DNA from: Candidatus Bathyarchaeota archaeon
Lineage (GTDB): Archaea > Thermoproteota > Bathyarchaeia > Bathyarchaeales > Bathycorpusculaceae
Assembly: GCA_963780185.1 (NCBI GenBank)
Contig: CAWABA010000001.1
Coordinates: 160,001 to 224,000 of the forward strand
Direction: 5' to 3'
DNA length: 64,000 bases
In this document: in pieces, positions 22,440-32,101 of the stretch
How the letters are laid out: each line of letters begins with the position of its first letter
How positions within the stretch are numbered: the first letter of the stretch is position 1
Position numbers and translations under genes: made by a program
Notes under the pieces: model-generated
Told to the model about the DNA's origin: nothing
Databases searched by the model: none
What the model saw: only the letters and a program-made list of their open reading frames with translations

Positions 22440-23312
22440 TCAATACAGTTGGCTTGCGACGGCTAGCACGGTGAAAACTGCGACGATTACGGCTATTATT
22501 ATGACGACTTTTTTCTCAGACATGGGACGATGATAAGTTATCAGCGTGATTAGGCTTCTTCTGTGTTCAGAGCAAAGTTTGGTTCCGTCGAAGGTAACTT
22601 TGGCTTTTTGCCGCGTGAAGAAAATCGAGAGCAGTATTAGTGTTGAATTGAAGATGTAAGGCAGCATCGAGATGAGTAAGCTTAGTTTTAGGTCTGAGAT
22701 TACGGCGAACGAAGCTATGGTCATTCCTATAGCGAAAGAGCCCGAGTTTCCCACGAAGATTTTTCCTCGAAAATTAAAGTATGCGAGCACCAGCCAGAAC
22801 AGTAAGGGTCCAACCATGAGGATGTAGGAGGACGAGAGAGCCATCAACCCGACTATGACTATGGCTGGGCATATTGTTTCTAAACCGTTTAACCCGCCAA
22901 GCATGTTCACGGCGTTGGTGACTATCATCACGATGACTGGAATGATAATGTAGAAGTAAACTGCGCCCAAATGAAATGAAGCAATGTACGGCAGTAACAG
23001 GGTTGTTCTCGCGCCTATCGCTTGAGCGTAGTATATGAGAGGTAGCGCGGCGATTAACGGCATGAATGCTTTGTAACGCCATTTGAGGTCAATCCAGTCG
23101 TCAAGCAGCCCCATGAAGCCGCCGAAAAGGATGCATGACGCCAAAATCAAGGGCGCTGATATGGGCGCTGAAACGCCTGCGGGGGTCTTTATTGCTCCTG
23201 AGAAGTAGAGAAGAAAAAGGTATACGGTGGCGAATAGGACGTAAAATACGCCAAAGCCGTTTGCTACAAGGGGGTGTCCGGGTTTGTGTTGGTCGGGGAC
23301 CTTTGGGAACAC
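22440..23312 (-). CDS. aglH: UDP-GlcNAc:dolichyl-phosphate GlcNAc-1-P transferase (AglH/Alg7/MraY family)
   Basis: DQHKPG, GLLDD, NAVNMLGGLNGLE, FVGNSG. Confidence 0.8.
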   Translation of the reverse strand: MFPKVPDQHKPGHPLVANGFGVFYVLFATVYLFLLYFSGAIKTPAGVSAPISAPLILASCILFGGFMGLLDDWIDLKWRYKAFMPLIAALPLIYYAQAIGARTTLLLPYIASFHLGAVYFYIIIPVIVMIVTNAVNMLGGLNGLETICPAIVIVGLMALSSSYILMVGPLLFWLVLAYFNFRGKIFVGNSGSFAIGMTIASFAVISDLKLSLLISMLPYIFNSTLILLSIFFTRQKAKVTFDGTKLCSEHRRSLITLITYHRPMSEKKVVIIIAVIVAVFTVLAVASQLY

Positions 23313-23340
23313 AGCGCCGCTTCCTTGTTGGTAGGCTTAT

Positions 23341-25671
23341 TTAGCCTACTTTTGTGACGCCTGTGCCGGTTTGTCCTGTTGCTGCGTAGTATGCACCGTA
23401 GTTTACTTGGTAGATTGCGACTAATGGCACTAATCCGCCGTATTGGAATGGTGAGGTGCTTAAGCCTGCGATTTCTACTGGTACGAAGTAACTTGGCGTT
23501 GTTGCTTTCCAACTTGTTGAGACGCTAAATCCAGCTTGAGTTAAAGCTCAGACGTACTGTGACGCGGCACCGTACATTAGCTCGTTTATGGTGCAGTTGT
23601 CTCCCTGCTGGTTCCATTGCCATGATCCGCTTGAGCTGTAGTTGCCGAAAGATGTTTCATCTTTCCACTGTGTTAATCCGTTTTTTGTGCCCATGTAGCC
23701 ATCGTTTATGTACATTTGCTCGTAGGTTCCTGAGATCCTTGCCATCCACACGAATTTGCCTTCGTCTCCGTAGCCTGCGGGGGAAGCTACGTAGGTTGTG
23801 CTGCCGCCGTTTGACTGCTGAATCGCCAGCACCATGAATACGACGACGTAGTTTACGCGTCCGGGGTTATCGTAGTTTTCGTAGTGGTTAAGCATCATCA
23901 ATGATTGGTTTTCGTTGCCCATCATCGTGAGGCCTACGTTGGCGATTTGTGTGGCGTTGTACGTGGTGTTATCGCAAAGCGTAGTAACGTTCCCAACATC
24001 ACTTAGCCAGTCGCCGTAATCCCACCAAGAGACTACAACACTATTTGCAGGCGCATTACCCTTAAACCAACTCAACGCTTGACTCCAAGCTCCTACAGCC
24101 TGCGTTAGACTTGTGCCGCCTATCGGGAGGCTTGATGCGCTAAGAGCTGTCGGAACGAAAGACTGACTGATGGATCTTGGGACTCCTCCTGTGGTTTGCG
24201 GTGAGAACGCAACTTCGGTTACGAGGATTATGAATATGAGGAAGATTGCGACTCCGCTGTATTCTTTGCTGACGCGTGCAAGTTTTCGCTTTGTCTTTGC
24301 AAGGCTTCGAGGCGACTCCTTAAGCAGGGTATAGAATGGTTTAAGTATGCTTAAGATGCCGACTGCGGCTATGATGGCGAAGGCTGGAGCAAATATTGCG
24401 AGCAGACGAATCATTGATGATGCGAAGAAAAGTGCTGTTACCGCGAAGATTATGAAGAAGACGTTTTTGGTCGTGGGGTTCCGCAGAATGAAGTACAATC
24501 CGATGAGGAAGAATAGTATGCCGACGCCTAATTCAAGGTAAACGTTTCCCCATGCAGTAATTTGCTGTTCCGCTACTGAGTTAATGATGGGTGAAGACGC
24601 CCTGATGAAGGGGTTCAGAACCGTTTCGAATTTCCCTGTGATTCCGCTGCCGTTGATTAGCCCAGTTACAGATAACCCGGCGAAGCCTCCAACTATTACG
24701 ACTAAAGCGCCGATTGCAACGGTTAGTTTGGTTCTCAGGGTTATGTTGTAATGCAGAAGTTCTGCTATGAGCAGCACTATGAATCCGGCGGCGACGGGGA
24801 GAACTGCTCCTGAACTCAGGTAGCCCAGCCCCATATACGGCACCTTGGTTGCAATCATCAACGCTAACCCGAAGGTTATGCTGTAGCTGACGAGCAGCCG
24901 TTGGCTGTAGCGTCTGAGCAGAAGCATAACGAACGTGAACAAGACTGTGGCGTCAATCATGTAGTATGCGCCTCCCCAACCTGCAATGAAGTAGGCTAAG
25001 GTTGCGGCTGCACCTATCGAGTACATGATGGATGCGCGCAGGGATTTGTTGTTGTCAATTGACCGAAGGAACAGGAAGACGAACAGAATCAAACCGATTG
25101 TGCCTGGAACCTGCGTGTCGAAAAATCCAAGCGAAGTTCTCTCGATAATTGAGGGTTCCAAAGCGATGAAAAGTGCAGAAAACAAGCCTACTGCTCTTCC
25201 GCCTATGTCTTTGCCAAGCAAATACATTACGTAGACTGAAGCTACGCCGATTACGGGAGGAATTAACGCGCACAGCGTCATCATGTTAACGTTTGCGCCC
25301 AAAGCATGGATAACATCGTAGACTACTGCTCCCGTTATGGGTATCGAAGGCAGAGCTGTTGCCATGTTAAGTCCGAAGGGATACCACAGTTGAGTGTTTA
25401 CCCAGTGTGAAGGCCAATAAGGTGAAAGTAAACCGTGGTTAACCATGAACTGTGTCACGGTGAACTGGTAGTAGGGGTCAAACTCGTTGAGTGTTGTCGT
25501 TCCCGCTGAAAGGTTCTCCCAGCGCAACGGCATAATTCGGATGATAAACGAAACAAACAATATTAGCGCTAGCGCAGAATAGGCAATTATCGTGCCGTGA
25601 CTTACTTCAATACGTAGTTTTCCAAAAGGTGCTAGCCTTTTACTAAGCCGGTCTTTAATTCCTTCCCCCAC
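23341..25671 (-). CDS. aglB: Oligosaccharyltransferase AglB/STT3; in-frame TGA at 23548-23550 followed by 68 more codons
   Basis: EFDPY, SVAE and WWDYG motifs with multi-TM N-terminus; same frame continues ALTQAG...GGLVPLVAIYQVNY...VG* to 23341. Confidence 0.92.
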
Positions 25672-25976
25672 TTTAAGCCATCCTTGTCAATGCGATTAAT
25701 TCTTCGTTTGTTAATTCTTTACTTATACACATTGAGCGTTTATTTATGGCTTTCCAAAATGTACCCGCATGGGTCAGCGAACCCTGCGGCTTATAGGAAT
25801 CTGTAATTTAAACAAATGAGTAGGTTTTACTCAGGTTTCCTAACCATTCCAAGGCAAGCTGTCTCTAAAAGAGGCGGAAAATTTGCGGTGACAACTAAAG
25901 AGCAACTGGCGGTAACCGTTTTTTCGCCTGGTAGAAACCCTGTTTTACGCAGGCTTGGCAGCCTGAATTTTGGTTG

Positions 25977-26147
25977 TCAGCGTCTGGGTATGGGTTTAAC
26001 TTCGACATCAATTGGTAACAGTGAAAGTTTCCGACTGCACTTCGGGCATTTTCCGCCGTATTGAGAAATAATCTCGTCAGGCGGTTTCAGTTCAAACCCT
26101 TCATACAAAACTTGATTGCAACCATGGCAAATAACACGTTGCGGCAT
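25977..26147 (-). CDS. Small zinc-ribbon protein, 56 aa (not in ORF track)
   Basis: MPQRVICHGCNQVLYEGFELKPPDEIISQYGGKCPKCSRKLSLLPIDVEVKPIPRR*: two CxxC pairs. Confidence 0.8.
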   Translation of the reverse strand: MPQRVICHGCNQVLYEGFELKPPDEIISQYGGKCPKCSRKLSLLPIDVEVKPIPRR

Positions 26148-26291
26148 CCAATTCCCCAGTTAATACACAGGTATGGATTATTTATTGGTTGCTTAATGGA
26201 AAGGCTGGTTGGGGCTTTGATGTTTGGACTGCAAACCTTTATTTCAAGAACGGCTATTTTTGTGACGCAGCAGTCTGTGGGTTAATCTGTC

Positions 26292-28370
26292 TTGGGAAAG
26301 TACACGTTGATTATTACTGAGAAGCCTGATGCCGCCAACAGGATAGCCGCGGCTTTGGATGTTGATGGAAAAGGGGAAAAAAACGTTGACTGCGGCGTTC
26401 CATACTATCGGGCTTATTGTGGCGGCGATTTGGTTGTTGTTCCTGCTCTGGGGCATTTGTACACGGTGGCGGGCAAGAAGAAGCCTCACCGTGATTTTCC
26501 TGTTTTCGACTATGAATGGGTCCCGAGGTACCTTGCCGAAAAGGGAGCGTCAAGAATTCGTGTTTGGCTGAAGGTTATTTCCAAGTTGGCGGAGAACGCT
26601 GAAGGGTTTGTTGACGCTTGTGACTTTGACATTGAAGGCAGCATCATAGGTTACTGCATACTCAAGTATGCCTGCGGCGGCAAAGAGCAAACTGCAAAAC
26701 GCATGAAGTACTCCACGCTTACGCGGGAAGAGCTGCAGGAATCCTACGGTCACCTTTTGCCGCATTTGGATTTCGCTCTGGTTCAGGCGGGTTTGGCGCG
26801 GCATGAAGTGGATTGGCTTTACGGCATTAATCTTTCAAGAGCCTTAACGTCAGCTGTGAAAAAAACCAGTGGGCAATACGCTGTTCTGAGCACTGGAAGA
26901 GTGCAGGGGCCGACGCTGAAGTTTGTTGAAGAACGGGAGAAAACCATTGGCTGCTTTGTACCCACGCCATACTGGACCCTGACCGCGAAAATAATGATTG
27001 GCGAATTTGCATGCGAAGCTGAGTACGAAAAAGTTCTTGAGAGCAAGCAGGAAGCGGTGCGGATTGCTGCGGAATGCAAAGCTGGGAAGGGCGAAGTGGA
27101 ATCGGTTGCAGTGGACGAGTTTGCTGTAAACCCGCCTTTTCCTTTTGACTTAGGCGCGCTGCAGAGTGAAGCTTACCGCGTTTTCCGCTACACGCCGATG
27201 CGCACTTCAAGTATTGCTCAAACCCTGTATTTAGACGCGTTAATCTCTTACCCCCGGACAAGCAGTCAAAAGCTTCCGCCAACAATAGGCTACAAAACCA
27301 TAATCGGCAAACTGGCTAAAATGCCGCTTTACACCAAACACGCCTCCGAGTTGCTTTCCAAACCCTCTTTGAAGCCGACTGAAGGTCCAAGGTTCGATTC
27401 TGCGCATCCAGCCATCTACCCAACTGGAAACTTTCTTGAAAAACCTCTCGGGGCACCTGAAAGAAACGTTTTCGACCTTATCATACGCAGGTTTATGGCT
27501 GCTTTCGGTGAACCAGCGATTCGGCAAAGTGTAAAGGTTACCGTTGGCGTTAACGGGAACAAGTTTCATTTGAGCGGTGTGCGTACGCTGAAGGCTGGTT
27601 GGATTCGACTCTACGAGCCCTATGCGCAACTAAAAGAGGTGGTTTTGCCGCCGCTGAGTCAGGGACAAACAGTAGCAATCAAACGGGTGACTCAAAAGAA
27701 CGAATTTACTAAACCGCCACCTCGGTATAATCCCCGCAGTTTGCTCTTGAAAATGGAGAAAGAAAACATCGGCACCAAAGCCACACGCGCAGCAACTATT
27801 CAAACGCTGCAGGACCGCAAATACGTGTGCGGAACAGGCAACTTTGCCGTTTCGGAGCTTGGTTTCGAAGTCGCCGAGGTGCTGTCAAGCTATTGCCCAA
27901 CGATTGTTTCGCCCGAGTTAACCAGAAGCCTAGAACAGGAAATGGACGACATTCAGGAGGGCAAAGAAACCAAAGAAGCCGTGCTGGAAAATGCAAAGTC
28001 CATTCTAAAGCCCGTTATGTTTGAGCTTAAAGCAAAAGAGTCTGAGATTGGTCAACGGCTAAGTGGAACAATAAAGACGTCTCGGCTTGCAGAAAGAACC
28101 GTTGGAGCCTGCCCAAAATGCGCTGACGGGAAACTCGTCATTTTGCGTTCCCAAAAAACAGGTAAACGTTTCGTCGGCTGCACCAACTACTTCCAAAAAG
28201 GCAAATGCAACGTCACCTATCCGCTGCCTCAGAGAGGCGCAATAAAGCCTCTTAGCAGCACCTGCAAAAGCTGCGGGTCGCCGATGATAAATGTGTGGCT
28301 AAGGGGAAGGAGTTCTTGGAAGCTGTGCTTAAACCCCATCTGCCCAACGAAAGGAGAGGCTAAACCGTGA
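26292..28370 (+). CDS. topA: Type IA DNA topoisomerase with C-terminal Zn ribbons
   Basis: IITEKP, DFDIEG toprim, STGRVQ, ISYPRT catalytic Tyr, AHPAIYPT, IGTKATR. Confidence 0.95.
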   Translation: MGKYTLIITEKPDAANRIAAALDVDGKGEKNVDCGVPYYRAYCGGDLVVVPALGHLYTVAGKKKPHRDFPVFDYEWVPRYLAEKGASRIRVWLKVISKLAENAEGFVDACDFDIEGSIIGYCILKYACGGKEQTAKRMKYSTLTREELQESYGHLLPHLDFALVQAGLARHEVDWLYGINLSRALTSAVKKTSGQYAVLSTGRVQGPTLKFVEEREKTIGCFVPTPYWTLTAKIMIGEFACEAEYEKVLESKQEAVRIAAECKAGKGEVESVAVDEFAVNPPFPFDLGALQSEAYRVFRYTPMRTSSIAQTLYLDALISYPRTSSQKLPPTIGYKTIIGKLAKMPLYTKHASELLSKPSLKPTEGPRFDSAHPAIYPTGNFLEKPLGAPERNVFDLIIRRFMAAFGEPAIRQSVKVTVGVNGNKFHLSGVRTLKAGWIRLYEPYAQLKEVVLPPLSQGQTVAIKRVTQKNEFTKPPPRYNPRSLLLKMEKENIGTKATRAATIQTLQDRKYVCGTGNFAVSELGFEVAEVLSSYCPTIVSPELTRSLEQEMDDIQEGKETKEAVLENAKSILKPVMFELKAKESEIGQRLSGTIKTSRLAERTVGACPKCADGKLVILRSQKTGKRFVGCTNYFQKGKCNVTYPLPQRGAIKPLSSTCKSCGSPMINVWLRGRSSWKLCLNPICPTKGEAKP

Positions 28371-28591
28371 AATGCAGGATTTGCAGCAGGGATGCGGAAG
28401 AGGATGGTTTTTGCGTGTTGCATTTGAAGGCTTATCGGAACGTTTTGGAGAAATTTGATGTTTGGCGTAAAGCGTCAGGGCTTGTTTGGATGGAGTATCT
28501 GGGGCAGATTCAGAAAAATTCATTAACTGGATGCTGGGCTAAAGAGGTGGTAGAGCAATTAATTAAGGATGAGAATGGCAATGTCAAATAA
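28367..28591 (+). CDS. Small Zn-binding protein (CxxC..CxxH)
   Basis: MKCRICSR...FCVLH; GTGA overlap with topA. Confidence 0.7.
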   Translation: MKCRICSRDAEEDGFCVLHLKAYRNVLEKFDVWRKASGLVWMEYLGQIQKNSLTGCWAKEVVEQLIKDENGNVK

Positions 28592-29003
28592 ACTAAAGAA
28601 GCGGTCATCAGACGTATCCTTTTCGCTGAGTCGCTGGTTCCAAAGAATCTCAACAACAACTCCGTCGGCGCTAATCTTAACCATCATAGGGGTCGGTTAC
28701 GCAATTTTCCTTTTCGGCGGCGGCTTATACACTCTTACTCAACACCCCGCTCCAGCCTATGTAAGCAGCACGGTAATCTATTTCCTGTACCCGGGCGTCA
28801 GCCAACAATTCATTTCTGACACTATCGTTTCATGTATACTGTACGCTTTCGGCTTCGTCGGTCTCTTCGCAATTTACCAAAGCACCAAAAGCGCCTACAA
28901 GCCAAGGCAAGCCTACATGCTGCTAATCGTAGGCGTAACATTCTTGGCTCTGTCATACATATTCCTCGAAGGCGCAATTCGCTTCAAAATCAACGGAGCT
29001 TAA
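28569..29003 (+). CDS. 3-TM protein resembling OSTC/DC2 (OST3/OST6 family) oligosaccharyltransferase subunit
   Basis: GGGLY....P, F.Y.....QF..D.....LY..G..G and C-terminal R.K..G, similar to the eukaryotic DC2 sequence as recalled. Confidence 0.65.
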   Translation: MRMAMSNKLKKRSSDVSFSLSRWFQRISTTTPSALILTIIGVGYAIFLFGGGLYTLTQHPAPAYVSSTVIYFLYPGVSQQFISDTIVSCILYAFGFVGLFAIYQSTKSAYKPRQAYMLLIVGVTFLALSYIFLEGAIRFKINGA

Positions 29004-29100
29004 TCTCCCTCTCAATCTTTTCATTGAGAATTTTTCGCTTCAAAAATTGCTTCTGAAAAGACTGGATTTTTCCCTGTGAACCCGTGTGGTTAAGGTTTCT

Positions 29101-29610
29101 TTACCAAGGGTTCTTTTTCAGCTTCAGCTTGTAGGCTAAGAAATTCGTGAACAGATGAATAGGCGGGGTGATGAGCAGAACTGTAACAGCCAGTTGCCAG
29201 CTTACGATGGCTAAGGGAATCGAAAACACGATTGCCCCTACAACGAAGTCGATTTGGTCAACAATCGGCAGCAAACCGCCAGGTGCAATTCCTACCCGTC
29301 TTTTGATGAAAGCGCCTGTTAAGTCTCCCAAGAGGGCTCCTAACGGAATTAGGATGGCGAATGAAATTGGGAAATGGAAAGCCACAACTTCCATGGCGCC
29401 GACCAGTATGCCGATGGCGAGGCCGAAGAAGAAGCCTCTGAAGGTTTTGTTGTTGCCGAAAACTCGTTTGCCGTCGTAGAAGTTTTTGCCGAAATCCATC
29501 TTTGTTCCGCCGCCTGCAAGCACTGGGGTGGCGTTTGCGCAGTAGGCTGGGAAAATAAATTTCAATGCATCAACGACTAGCAAGGCTATGCTCATGTGGT
29601 CAACCGTCAA
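29101..29610 (-). CDS. carS: CDP-archaeol synthase (DUF46)
   Basis: PAYCANATP, DGKRVFGNNKTFRG, GDLTGAFIKRR, DQIDF, KKNPW. Confidence 0.92.
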   Translation of the reverse strand: MTVDHMSIALLVVDALKFIFPAYCANATPVLAGGGTKMDFGKNFYDGKRVFGNNKTFRGFFFGLAIGILVGAMEVVAFHFPISFAILIPLGALLGDLTGAFIKRRVGIAPGGLLPIVDQIDFVVGAIVFSIPLAIVSWQLAVTVLLITPPIHLFTNFLAYKLKLKKNPW

Positions 29611-29612
29611 TA

Positions 29613-30320
29613 TTATCGGAATTCAGTATCTTGTATTCCAGACTCAAGTATTTGTACATAGCAGCTGGTTTCTTGGGAGATTGCGGGTGATTTTTCAACT
29701 AAGGCTTTCAGGGTTTGGGGGTACTCGGTGGGTTTGAGGAAGATTATGGTGTCTGCCCAGAATTTTAGAACCCTGTTGGCGACTGGTCTTACGCTGACGT
29801 TTTCGTTGTCAAGAATGCTTCGAACCTGACTTGTCACGACTACGGGGATTTTTCGGATTTTTGTCGTCTGCGCCAAAATCGCCAGTTGCCTGTTTAACTC
29901 GCGGTTTACGCTGAAGGCTTTGCCTGAACGCTCAGCAACTTCTGCACCGTACAGCGAGGTTAGGGTGTCAATTATTATTAATCCAAAATTTTTCTCCGTG
30001 TAGTCTTGAATGTGGTCAACGACGGCTGTTTGCTCATGGAAATCTTTGGGTTTAATCAAAATGACTTGTTCAGCAACTTGGTCAAATCGGTTTTTTGCGA
30101 TCTGCGACATTCTTTTGGTTGAGAAGGTGTTGTCGCAGTCGATGTAGAGGGTTTTGAGGTTTTGCAGGGCGCAGTTGACGGCGCATTGAATGGCGAGGGT
30201 TGTCTTTCCAGTTTCGGGTTCACCATAGATTAAAACTACGTTTTCAGGCAGGATTCCTCCGCCGATGTTGCTGTCGATGCATTTGCAGCCCGTGCTTATG
30301 GTAGCCATTTCTATACCCAA
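29613..30320 (-). CDS. radB: RadB-like RecA-family protein
   Basis: ISTGC..ID..IGGG, GEPETGKT, IIIDT; lacks the RadA N-terminal domain. Confidence 0.8.
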   Translation of the reverse strand: MGIEMATISTGCKCIDSNIGGGILPENVVLIYGEPETGKTTLAIQCAVNCALQNLKTLYIDCDNTFSTKRMSQIAKNRFDQVAEQVILIKPKDFHEQTAVVDHIQDYTEKNFGLIIIDTLTSLYGAEVAERSGKAFSVNRELNRQLAILAQTTKIRKIPVVVTSQVRSILDNENVSVRPVANRVLKFWADTIIFLKPTEYPQTLKALVEKSPAISQETSCYVQILESGIQDTEFR

Positions 30321-30384
30321 GTTTTATTAAACTAAAAACTAGTATTGTTTTTTGCACTTAAACGTATACTATCAGGTTGATTAG

Positions 30385-31032
30385 GTGAAGGAAAAAGTTG
30401 CGGTTGCAACGGTAAAGGGAAAAGCTTACTTTCTCATCGTTAAGCAGCTGCAAGAGCATGATATCCCTTTTGTGAATTTGGTTCCAGGCGAATCTGTGCC
30501 GTCAGAAGTTAAAGTTGTATTAACTACAGAAAAGGAAAAGAGCCTGATTAACCACGGAAAAATTCTAATCTTGCCCGATGGGGAAGAAATGGATTCTTTG
30601 GTTGATGAGGTAAAGCGGATTCTTGAAGGCAAAGAAGCGTACGAAAAAATTGTGGTGGGCGTTGACCCAGGCGGAGCCATCGGGCTTGCGGCAATCGCTG
30701 ACGGCAAGGTAATTGCGGAAAACAACTGTTTCAGCATCCGCGAATTAATCGAAGGCATACTTAAGATAGTTAAGAACGTTAATTTTTCTTTGACAAAAAT
30801 AATCGTTAAAATCGGCAACGGAGTACCCATCTACCAAGAAATAGTTAACGGTTTAGATGAAGCGTTGCCGCCTCAGGTTAGGCTTGAAGTTGTAAACGAA
30901 CGAGGAACCAACCAACCAATAAAAAAAGTCGGGCGCAGCCGAAAAATTAGACATATTTCTTCAGCCATACGAATATCAGCAAGAACAGGCTACATTGTTC
31001 CAAGAGGAAAGCCAATTGCAACAGACAGTTGA
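30385..31032 (+). CDS. Protein with RNase H-fold (YqgF/RuvC-like) domain
   Basis: VVGVDPGG.IGLA strand pattern, IGNG, VNERGT. Confidence 0.6.
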   Translation: MKEKVAVATVKGKAYFLIVKQLQEHDIPFVNLVPGESVPSEVKVVLTTEKEKSLINHGKILILPDGEEMDSLVDEVKRILEGKEAYEKIVVGVDPGGAIGLAAIADGKVIAENNCFSIRELIEGILKIVKNVNFSLTKIIVKIGNGVPIYQEIVNGLDEALPPQVRLEVVNERGTNQPIKKVGRSRKIRHISSAIRISARTGYIVPRGKPIATDS

Positions 31033-32101
31033 ATCCAGCAGGACTCTGCTAATAGATGGTCCCGCATCCGTAAAGGTTGTTTCAGGAAAAGCTGAAGTCT
31101 TCGGCTGCCCAGTTAAGCCATCTCAAAGGATCGTGGTGCGCGAAGGAAAGCGGCTGCCATTTCTTGTGCTTGAAAAAACAGAGTTTGACATATCGTTAGG
31201 CCCCAACGCAGCCGTAACAGAGACCGCTGGCAGCACAATCCCCACTTCATGGAGTAAACCCCTCGAATCGATTTTGGCGGTGCAGAAAAAACCAGCTGTT
31301 GTTTTGGTTGTTGGAAAAATTGACTCTGGGAAAAGCAGCTACTGCACTTACTTGGTGAACAGGTTGGTTGAGGGCAAATTCAGGGTTGCGGTTTTAGACG
31401 GCGATTTGGGACAATCAGACATAGGCTCCTCAGGCACCGTTAGCTACGCCATTGCCTCCAAGCCCGTTGTGGAACTGTATGATTTGAAGCTTGAGAACGC
31501 TTTTTTCGTCGGGGTTACGTCGCCGATGGTGGCGACTGTCACTACAATCGAAGGTTTAGCTGCTTTAAAGGCTGAAATTTTGCAGAAACCCGTTGATTTT
31601 GTTGTAATTAACACGGATGGTTGGGTTGAGGGTGACATTGCGGTGCAGTACAAGGCGGCTTTAGTTAAAGAGCTAAAACCTGACGTTATCGTGGGCGTTC
31701 AAGCAGGCGACGAACTCCGGGAGTTGATAGCCAACGTGGGGCAGCCCGTGTCTACGGTTGAGCTTTCTGCCTCTCTTATCCAACGAACCACGGAGAAACG
31801 CAAGAGCCTCCGGGAAATGACCTACGCAAGATACCTCAAAGACGCAAAACTTCAAAACTACCCACTGAGCCAAGTGACTATTGAACCCCAGTGGTCTCTT
31901 CCCAAAAGTCAGGTTCCAGAGAAAGGTGTGCTTCTCGGGCTGTATGGTTCAGGAAGCAAGTTTTTAGGAATCGGCGTTCTGCGGGAAATTAACCATTTGA
32001 GACGAGCGCTAAAGGTGCAGACGTCGGTTTCAGATAAGCCGCTGAGAATTGTTGTTGGGAAGGTTTGTTTGGATGAGAAGCTGAGGGAAATTCAAGACTG
32101 A
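30995..32101 (+). CDS. Clp1/Grc3/Nol9-family polynucleotide 5'-OH kinase
   Basis: GKIDSGKS Walker A, DGDLGQ, INTDGW, R...R lid; N-terminal GPASVKVVSGKAEVFG. Confidence 0.88.
   Translation: MFQEESQLQQTVESSRTLLIDGPASVKVVSGKAEVFGCPVKPSQRIVVREGKRLPFLVLEKTEFDISLGPNAAVTETAGSTIPTSWSKPLESILAVQKKPAVVLVVGKIDSGKSSYCTYLVNRLVEGKFRVAVLDGDLGQSDIGSSGTVSYAIASKPVVELYDLKLENAFFVGVTSPMVATVTTIEGLAALKAEILQKPVDFVVINTDGWVEGDIAVQYKAALVKELKPDVIVGVQAGDELRELIANVGQPVSTVELSASLIQRTTEKRKSLREMTYARYLKDAKLQNYPLSQVTIEPQWSLPKSQVPEKGVLLGLYGSGSKFLGIGVLREINHLRRALKVQTSVSDKPLRIVVGKVCLDEKLREIQD

Follow-up and report, generated by a model that had tools for sequence, protein, structure and literature searches.

A DC2-type relative of the OST3/OST6/OSTC membrane module is anciently linked to aglB in Bathyarchaeia and across their phylum

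The stretch of DNA analyzed here (hereafter the window) comprises 64,000 nucleotides from the genome of a Candidatus Bathyarchaeota archaeon (assembly GCA_963780185.1, contig CAWABA010000001.1, positions 160,001 to 224,000). It carries a small gene whose product is homologous to OSTC/DC2 and to the membrane module of OST3/OST6, which in the eukaryotic oligosaccharyltransferase (OST) are non-catalytic subunits. Across the phylum this OSTC-like gene is anciently linked to aglB, the gene of the archaeal OST enzyme, and an accessory role for AglB is well supported by this context. We consider it likely that the protein is a non-catalytic AglB subunit of DC2 type, docked on the transmembrane (TM) domain of AglB; physical binding to AglB and an effect on glycosylation would follow by analogy with the eukaryotic subunits. 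The gene is:

28581..29003, plus strand: OSTC/DC2-like protein with three TM helices, 140 amino acids (aa); the longest frame, starting at 28569, has 144 aa

The original prediction had pointed to a three-TM product of the open reading frame (ORF) 28569..29003 on the plus strand. Indeed, the quoted motifs LFGGGLYTLTQHP, FLYPGVSQQFISDTIVSCILYAFGFVG and RFKING are all present in its translation, and the strings of OSTC/DC2 named as their counterparts are indeed part of human OSTC and line up with them when the protein is compared with PDB chains by phmmer. Since relatives begin at the methionine of an MSxK motif, translation likely starts at 28581. Ten lysine and arginine residues are located in the N-terminal tail and the loop between TM2 and TM3, as compared to two in the other (hairpin) loop and the C-terminal tail, which places the N-terminus inside and the C-terminus outside. 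The same holds for DC2, whose C-terminal tail is described as lumenal in a passage of PMC5674889.

When all PDB chains were searched with the window protein by phmmer, the matches at E<=10 comprised two distinct sequences, each of them OSTC (E 0.0029 and 0.015). The better match, 6s7o_H, aligns residues 32-143 of the window protein with residues 28-145 of 149. Its top match in Pfam is PF04756 (OST3_OST6; E 0.0025), with residues 31-140 falling on positions 178-288 of the 294 profile positions. Taken alone, such weak scores could reflect chance resemblance of a hydrophobic mini-protein lacking any homology to OSTC. However, the scores climb with the depth of the profile. Profile A1, built from 37 close homologues, detected OSTC at 5.2e-5 and MagT1 at chance level (0.49). 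Profile A4, comprising 27 sequences from Bathyarchaeia only, down to 24% identity, detected OSTC at E 3.2e-11 (profile positions 31-141 versus residues 26-143 of 149) and no other solved protein at E<=1. With profile A2, made from 72 diverse relatives, OSTC was found at 2e-16 and residues 219-326 of MagT1, i.e. its TM2-4, at 8.1e-7. The alignment spans the full length, and invariant columns of the family (GG, Q and G) coincide with those of OSTC. Together with a sequence-independent fold search that is topped by OST subunits only (see below), this contradicts the idea of chance resemblance, to which we assign practically no probability. The protein is homologous to OSTC/DC2 and to the OST3/OST6 membrane module. 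We also considered that A2 might be inflated by hidden eukaryotic OSTC sequences. The idea was rejected: protein P0248, second in A2 by Pfam score, matches human OSTC at no better than 1.7e-4, and the Bathyarchaeia-only profile gives OSTC unaided.

An exhaustive profile search of 1.84 billion representatives returned 230 relatives at E<=0.001. Among 73 relatives scanned against Pfam, 58 match PF04756 at E<=0.01 and 26 exceed the cut-off of this family; in addition, many close homologues of the window protein carry a precomputed PF04756 label. In the window protein and the 58 relatives the match covers only profile positions ~151 to 294, representing the C-terminal TM part, and never the thioredoxin part. 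Accordingly, no thioredoxin match was detected in the Pfam scans of the window protein (140 aa) or of the scanned relatives. A different architecture was observed in P0236, a metagenomic protein of 341 aa, in which the OST3/OST6 membrane module (35.1 bits) follows an N-terminal zinc ribbon plus HEAT repeats; the eukaryotic subunits do not show this domain combination.

The predicted fold points in the same direction. A first model relying on close homologues alone was poor (pLDDT 62.5) and not used, while the alignment-based model reached a pLDDT of 91.7 and a pTM of 0.75. The ten best Foldseek matches of this model are all chains of OSTC, Ost3, MagT1 or Ost6, with TM-scores of 0.49-0.68 normalised to the model. 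In a comparison with 48,161 representative chains, only four score at Z>=8, namely MagT1 (12.9), OSTC (12.2), Ost6 (10.3) and Ost3 (8.7); the next chain in this all-chain search is unrelated and has a Z of 7.6.

Human OSTC (6S7O chain H; also 8B6L, 8PN9 and 9N9J) is the subunit specific for the STT3A-containing OST-A complex and has 149 aa, as compared to 140 aa in the window protein. Both possess three TM helices with a short outside hairpin loop connecting TM1 and TM2, and both lack a thioredoxin domain. They have the GG-x-x-Y(D), Q and G-x-x-G positions in common in a full-length alignment and superpose with a root-mean-square deviation of 2.3 A over 106 residues (Z 12.2). Moreover, STT3A is the closest solved relative of the putative catalytic partner of the window protein. 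They differ in that identity is only about 20-25%, in that the host membrane of the archaeal protein is the plasma membrane, and in the residues following the conserved Q, which are D-T in the window protein and E-S or E-G in OSTC and most relatives. As to yeast OST3/OST6 and mammalian TUSC3/MagT1, the model can be superposed on TM2-4 of MagT1, Ost6 and Ost3, but the archaeal protein has neither the lumenal thioredoxin domain carrying a CxxC motif nor the first TM helix. Without the thioredoxin domain, the protein cannot have the oxidoreductase function that defines OST3/OST6 proper, and as a three-helix module it should therefore be regarded as a DC2-type member rather than as OST3/OST6 in the strict sense. 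Sequence and model together thus place it as an archaeal member of the OST3/OST6/OSTC membrane module of DC2 type. A thioredoxin-like PF04756 match, the only one in the genome, is present in a separate frame of 113 aa on contig 6. It was set aside as generic because the same search also matched 12 of 14 control genomes.

The OSTC-like gene, almost always in single copy, was found in 170 of 201 sampled genomes of Bathyarchaeia, in 108 of the 121 high-quality genomes among them and in 80 of 87 genera. The gene is under strong purifying selection, the mean column identity of the 37 homologues of profile A1 being 70%. A phylum-wide sample revealed the gene in 94 of 151 genomes (73 of 130 outside Bathyarchaeia). 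The cluster names of the relatives also include Lokiarchaeota and Promethearchaeota members, and the Bathyarchaeia profile hits one Lokiarchaeota cluster (P0215) and one protein from Promethearchaeota (P0247). The Asgard proteins known as OST3/OST6, exemplified by the Lokiarchaeota protein TXT65921.1 with 183 aa and by DSAG12_01196 of Promethearchaeum syntrophicum, are members of this family; they too are small and have no thioredoxin part. Passages in three papers report such Asgard proteins as homologues of OST subunits (PMC10307638, PMC11284389, PMC11417166), and further OST and TRAP subunits are ascribed to Asgard genomes in a passage of the first. The window protein, in contrast, comes from Bathyarchaeia, a TACK lineage, and one Bathyarchaeota member of its family already bears the NCBI label 'OST3/OST6 family protein'. 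Three entries labelled as Candidatus Limnocylindrales bacterium (L012), Nitrososphaerota archaeon (L062) and Methanocella sp. (L073) encode OSTC-like proteins of 57-78% identity; their labels or bins are probably wrong, because they carry the Bathyarchaeia-type gene block.

To assess linkage outside the class, the coordinates of OSTC-like matches were combined with those of AglB matches in all 73 positive genomes. The two genes reside on one contig in 53 of these, with distances of <=1 kb in 18, <=3.5 kb in 35, <=5 kb in 39 and <=10 kb in 41 pairs. All 18 pairs within 1 kb, representing seven families, are divergent, i.e. oriented head-to-head, as are 45 of the 53 pairs overall. Exceptions were observed in family f51, with 332 kb between the genes, and in f53, in which they are 8 kb apart on the same strand. 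Gene maps were drawn for 18 loci outside the class, picked with the distances already known and therefore illustrative rather than meant for counting. They show the recurring order aglB, a zinc-ribbon gene, the OSTC-like gene pointing the opposite way, and carS and/or radB. Presence of the OSTC-like gene also tracks the type of AglB. In families possessing the gene, AglB matches the Bathyarchaeia AglB profile at ~1e-88 to 1e-207, compared to 1e-18 to 1e-66 in the families lacking it (f34, f41, f42, f46-f49 and f55). Searches in families with a distant AglB yielded no OSTC-like gene in 13 genomes of f41, six of f47 and five of f34. The synteny survey suggested along with the original prediction thus revealed a head-to-head linkage with aglB that is conserved across the phylum, and in addition a co-occurrence with AglB type.

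The features of the window that surround the OSTC-like gene are as follows:

22440..23312, minus strand: GT4 phosphosugar transferase (AglH / Alg7-DPAGT1-like); PF00953 at 8.3e-23; directly downstream of aglB
23341..25671, minus strand: aglB (STT3A-like); open frame 23548-25671, 707 aa; PF02516 at 6.6e-31
25977..26147, minus strand: zinc-ribbon gene with CxxC...CPxC, 56 aa; only generic zinc-ribbon matches in Pfam; on the strand of aglB, 305 bp upstream of it
26292..28370, plus strand: topA (type IA topoisomerase); PF01131 at 1.2e-114
28367..28591, plus strand: ORF of 74 aa similar to the C-terminus of topoisomerase I; E 7.5e-12 to NCBIfam PRK05776 (positions 605-672 of 677)
29101..29610, minus strand: carS (CDP-archaeol synthase); PF01864 at 1.8e-43 and NF003114 at 184 bits, above cut-off; convergent, 98 bp downstream of the OSTC-like gene
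19.7-32.1 kb, flanks: polB (plus strand) comes first; radB, a DUF460 gene and a Clp1-like kinase gene follow carS

The original prediction had located the gene about 3 kb from aglB and aglH and next to carS, and this agrees with the map: aglB is 2.9 kb away with the GT4 gene beyond it, and carS adjoins on the other side. The window displays the divergent layout seen elsewhere in the phylum, with topA and the 74-aa ORF inserted. The stop codon of topA and the start of the 74-aa ORF overlap in the sequence GTGA, and the stop codon of the latter overlaps the ATG at 28581 by 11 nt. Therefore, in this lineage the OSTC-like gene forms the end of a topA-side string of genes that points away from aglB. 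At 80 loci of close relatives we found carS 76, radB 75, topA 74, the zinc-ribbon gene 70, aglB 68 and the GT4 gene 67 times, the last of these beside aglB; the 74-aa ORF is matched separately at 74 of them. Since the whole neighbourhood is frozen among close relatives, linkage at these loci says little on its own. At 20 loci from other families of Bathyarchaeia, radB was present at 18, carS at 17, the zinc-ribbon gene at 13, aglB at 10 and topA at 6. Insertion of topA between the zinc-ribbon and OSTC-like genes is thus a feature of 74 of 80 close loci versus 6 of 20 distant ones.

The two glycosylation genes of the neighbourhood are, judged from their products, eukaryote-like as well. All five PDB matches of the GT4 enzyme are human DPAGT1/Alg7 (best 6.7e-16). 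AglB, the sole STT3 match in this genome, has human STT3A as its best PDB match (4.3e-65; residues 15-651 versus 3-607 of 705), followed by STT3B (1.6e-51) and yeast Stt3 (3.3e-50). With the single-subunit AglB enzymes of Euryarchaeota and Sulfolobales it has the catalytic chemistry and the WWDYG motif in common; the motif (W549-W550-D551-Y552-G553) is invariant across the 44 sequences of alignment A3. However, this AglB is far nearer to STT3A (4e-65) than to the euryarchaeal enzymes, whose solved chains match it at only 1e-5 to 1e-3 and in the C-terminal domain only.

Based on these relationships, the OSTC-like protein would be a plasma-membrane protein docked on the TM domain of AglB, the STT3A-like enzyme whose gene lies 2.9 kb away, much as DC2 docks on STT3A and Ost3 or MagT1 on Stt3 or STT3B. 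There, it may stabilise or tune AglB near the site of the lipid-linked oligosaccharide and the acceptor. Several observations weigh against this proposal. In cultured archaea, AglB reportedly functions as a single subunit. The profile comparison suggested along with the original prediction succeeded only in part: similarity to OSTC and OST3/OST6 emerges from the profiles of the relatives and from the fold, but the single window protein stays below the PF04756 cut-off (17.7 versus 27 bits). In the window, the gene is co-oriented and overlaps with the topA string rather than with aglB, which lies at a distance. In family f38 the OSTC-like gene is far from aglB (13 kb or more, or on other contigs), and in f39 one same-contig pair is 710 kb apart, with the genes residing on other contigs in five further cases. 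The AglB proteins of family f33 are fairly close to the Bathyarchaeia type (~1e-51 to 1e-100), yet 19 of 20 genomes do not have the OSTC-like gene, and the remaining one has a weak, partial match. Furthermore, the counts of co-occurrence overstate the case because kin are not independent. Finally, the conserved block also holds carS, radB and the Clp1-like kinase gene phylum-wide, and part of the linkage may therefore reflect inherited gene order instead of function.

The distances in f38, f39 and f51 would also suit a free-standing membrane protein of the OST3/OST6 module that works without AglB, for instance in transport of cations (Mg2+), as once proposed for MagT1/TUSC3. Existing names lean that way, given that the Pfam entry speaks of a 'transporter family' and some members of the sequence clusters are annotated by JGI as 'divalent metal cation transporter'. 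However, all relatives of solved structure are OST subunits sitting on STT3, a pore is not evident from three helices, and the loci surveyed with the proteins of the window contained no recognisable transport-related gene next to the OSTC-like one. As the gene is head-to-head with aglB in seven families and tracks the AglB type, we regard a transport function as improbable.

By position, the protein could instead be a lipid-side helper, tied to carS or to the metabolism of the polyprenyl carrier and not to the transferase. carS is the immediate convergent neighbour here, and is found beside the OSTC-like gene at 76 of 80 and 17 of 20 loci in Bathyarchaeia and at 6 of 18 loci of other families. 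Convergent genes do not share a promoter, though, the 3' neighbour in many families is radB and not carS, and no solved relative acts in lipid synthesis, which leaves this role with very little likelihood. Independently of these considerations, a block consisting of aglB, the zinc-ribbon gene, the OSTC-like gene, carS, radB, the DUF460 gene and the Clp1-like kinase gene recurs in many families (window 22440-32101; loci L005-L122). For a block of mixed functions, conservation of gene order is unusually deep.

An AglB subunit of DC2 type could in addition connect AglB with SecYEG and thereby serve co-translational glycosylation, in the way DC2 connects STT3A with Sec61. This extension, already contained in the original prediction, draws on the same analogy, OSTC being the closest solved relative of the window protein and STT3A that of its AglB. 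According to a passage of PMC5674889, DC2 is required for contact of STT3A with the translocon. The genome may also encode an OST1-like protein; its tail has weak similarity to the ribosome-binding domain of Asgard OST1 (8whn_A, E 1.6e-4). On the other hand, no KCP2 match was found in the genome. MagT1 and Ost3 belong to translocon-independent OST forms, and their modules fit the model equally well. A contact of the OSTC-like protein with SecYEG is speculative, and we rate the bridging role as rather unlikely.

The genome, which is 93.5% complete, was searched for further OST subunits. KCP2 (PF09775), Ost5 (PF05251), DAD (PF02109) and OST48_N (PF03345) gave no match at E<=0.1, whereby the blank for KCP2 proves little as the protein is so small. 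Neither was Ost4 (PF10215) matched at E<=0.1, in a search that matched no control genome and is therefore without power. A candidate for ribophorin I/OST1 was encountered outside the window, namely an ORF of 609 aa on contig 7 (L003:406-2235, minus strand). In the genome search, PF04597 matched it weakly (E 0.0275), and the family was not listed by hmmscan. Six of 26 close homologues match PF04597 (best 1.4e-6), and 15 of 120 listed homologues carry a precomputed label of this family. The tail of the ORF matches the crystallised cytoplasmic domain of Asgard OST1, 8whn_A, at 1.6e-4, and at 1e-3 with profile A5. We retain the ORF as a candidate OST1/ribophorin I only. The notion of a multi-subunit OST put forward in the original prediction would have as its basis the OSTC-like subunit and a weakly supported OST1-like gene.

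A further potential partner of AglB is the small protein encoded upstream of aglB, which has the consensus MPQKIIC..CG..LYEG.EL..P.EIIQ...G.CPKCG.KL. It has no dedicated family, and generic zinc-ribbon matches go along with inconsistent automatic names. One of these, the JGI label RpoP, was dismissed: PF03604 does not match the ORF and has its best, weak matches elsewhere in the genome. Matches to the zinc-ribbon ORF were obtained in 115 of 151 genomes of the phylum, the weakest of which may be other zinc ribbons. For 50 pairs outside the class, with both places listed and on the same contig, its position could be typed. In 45 of these pairs the gene is on the strand of aglB and upstream of it; in 25 of the 50, from six families, the distance is <=350 bp. 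This pairing holds in f41, which has no OSTC-like gene, and in f39, where the OSTC-like gene is elsewhere. In many lineages the zinc-ribbon gene is located between aglB and the OSTC-like gene.

The zinc-ribbon gene possibly encodes an undescribed AglB-linked factor; a literature search retrieved no paper linking aglB with a zinc ribbon. We tentatively propose, as a possibility of modest likelihood, that the ancestral OST locus of Thermoproteota was a module of three genes, namely the OSTC-like gene head-to-head with the gene of a small cytoplasmic zinc-ribbon protein co-transcribed with aglB, this protein being a further partner or regulator of AglB. The zinc-ribbon protein has no counterpart in the eukaryotic OST. 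If the proposal is true, the OST of TACK type would be a multi-component machine of its own kind, possibly including an OST1-like protein. We consider this lead to be worth more than the OSTC-like finding itself.

In textbooks, archaeal N-glycosylation is the work of AglB alone, and helper subunits are an invention of eukaryotes (or of Asgard archaea). In the study of Lombard 2016, prokaryotic homologues of the non-catalytic OST subunits were not found (PMC4973528). Later on, Ost1 and Ost3 homologues were credited to Asgard archaea in a passage of Eme et al. 2023 (PMC10307638), and Nakagawa et al. 2024 list an Ost3/6 gene for P. syntrophicum (entry in PMC11284389). One sentence in Carilo et al. 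2024 assigns OST1 and OST3/6 to eukaryotes, TACK and Asgard archaea (PMC11417166). OSTC-like relatives are thus already on record for this archaeal group, in databases and in one paper. Among the papers searched, we found neither an experiment on binding of an archaeal OST3/6/DC2-like protein to AglB nor any report in which the TACK proteins are said to be closest to OSTC/DC2. What the present analysis adds is the quantified linkage and the zinc-ribbon lead. At this locus, the DC2/Ost3 membrane module accompanies an STT3A-like AglB and an initiating enzyme resembling Alg7 in a lineage outside the Asgard archaea, and the ancient linkage of the module to aglB makes a multi-subunit archaeal OST directly testable.

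Two further observations concern neighbouring genes. In aglB, the in-frame codon at 23548-23550 is TGA, as opposed to GGA in a relative of 96% identity. Conservation continues through the 68 codons past this TGA up to a normal stop near 23341, with 86% identity over an 85-residue C-terminal alignment. The TGA represents either a recent nonsense change or an assembly error, and it removes only the C-terminal tail. The 74-aa ORF, which resembles the last 70 residues of topoisomerase I, constitutes a separate frame, and in one other family it is located on the strand opposite to topA.

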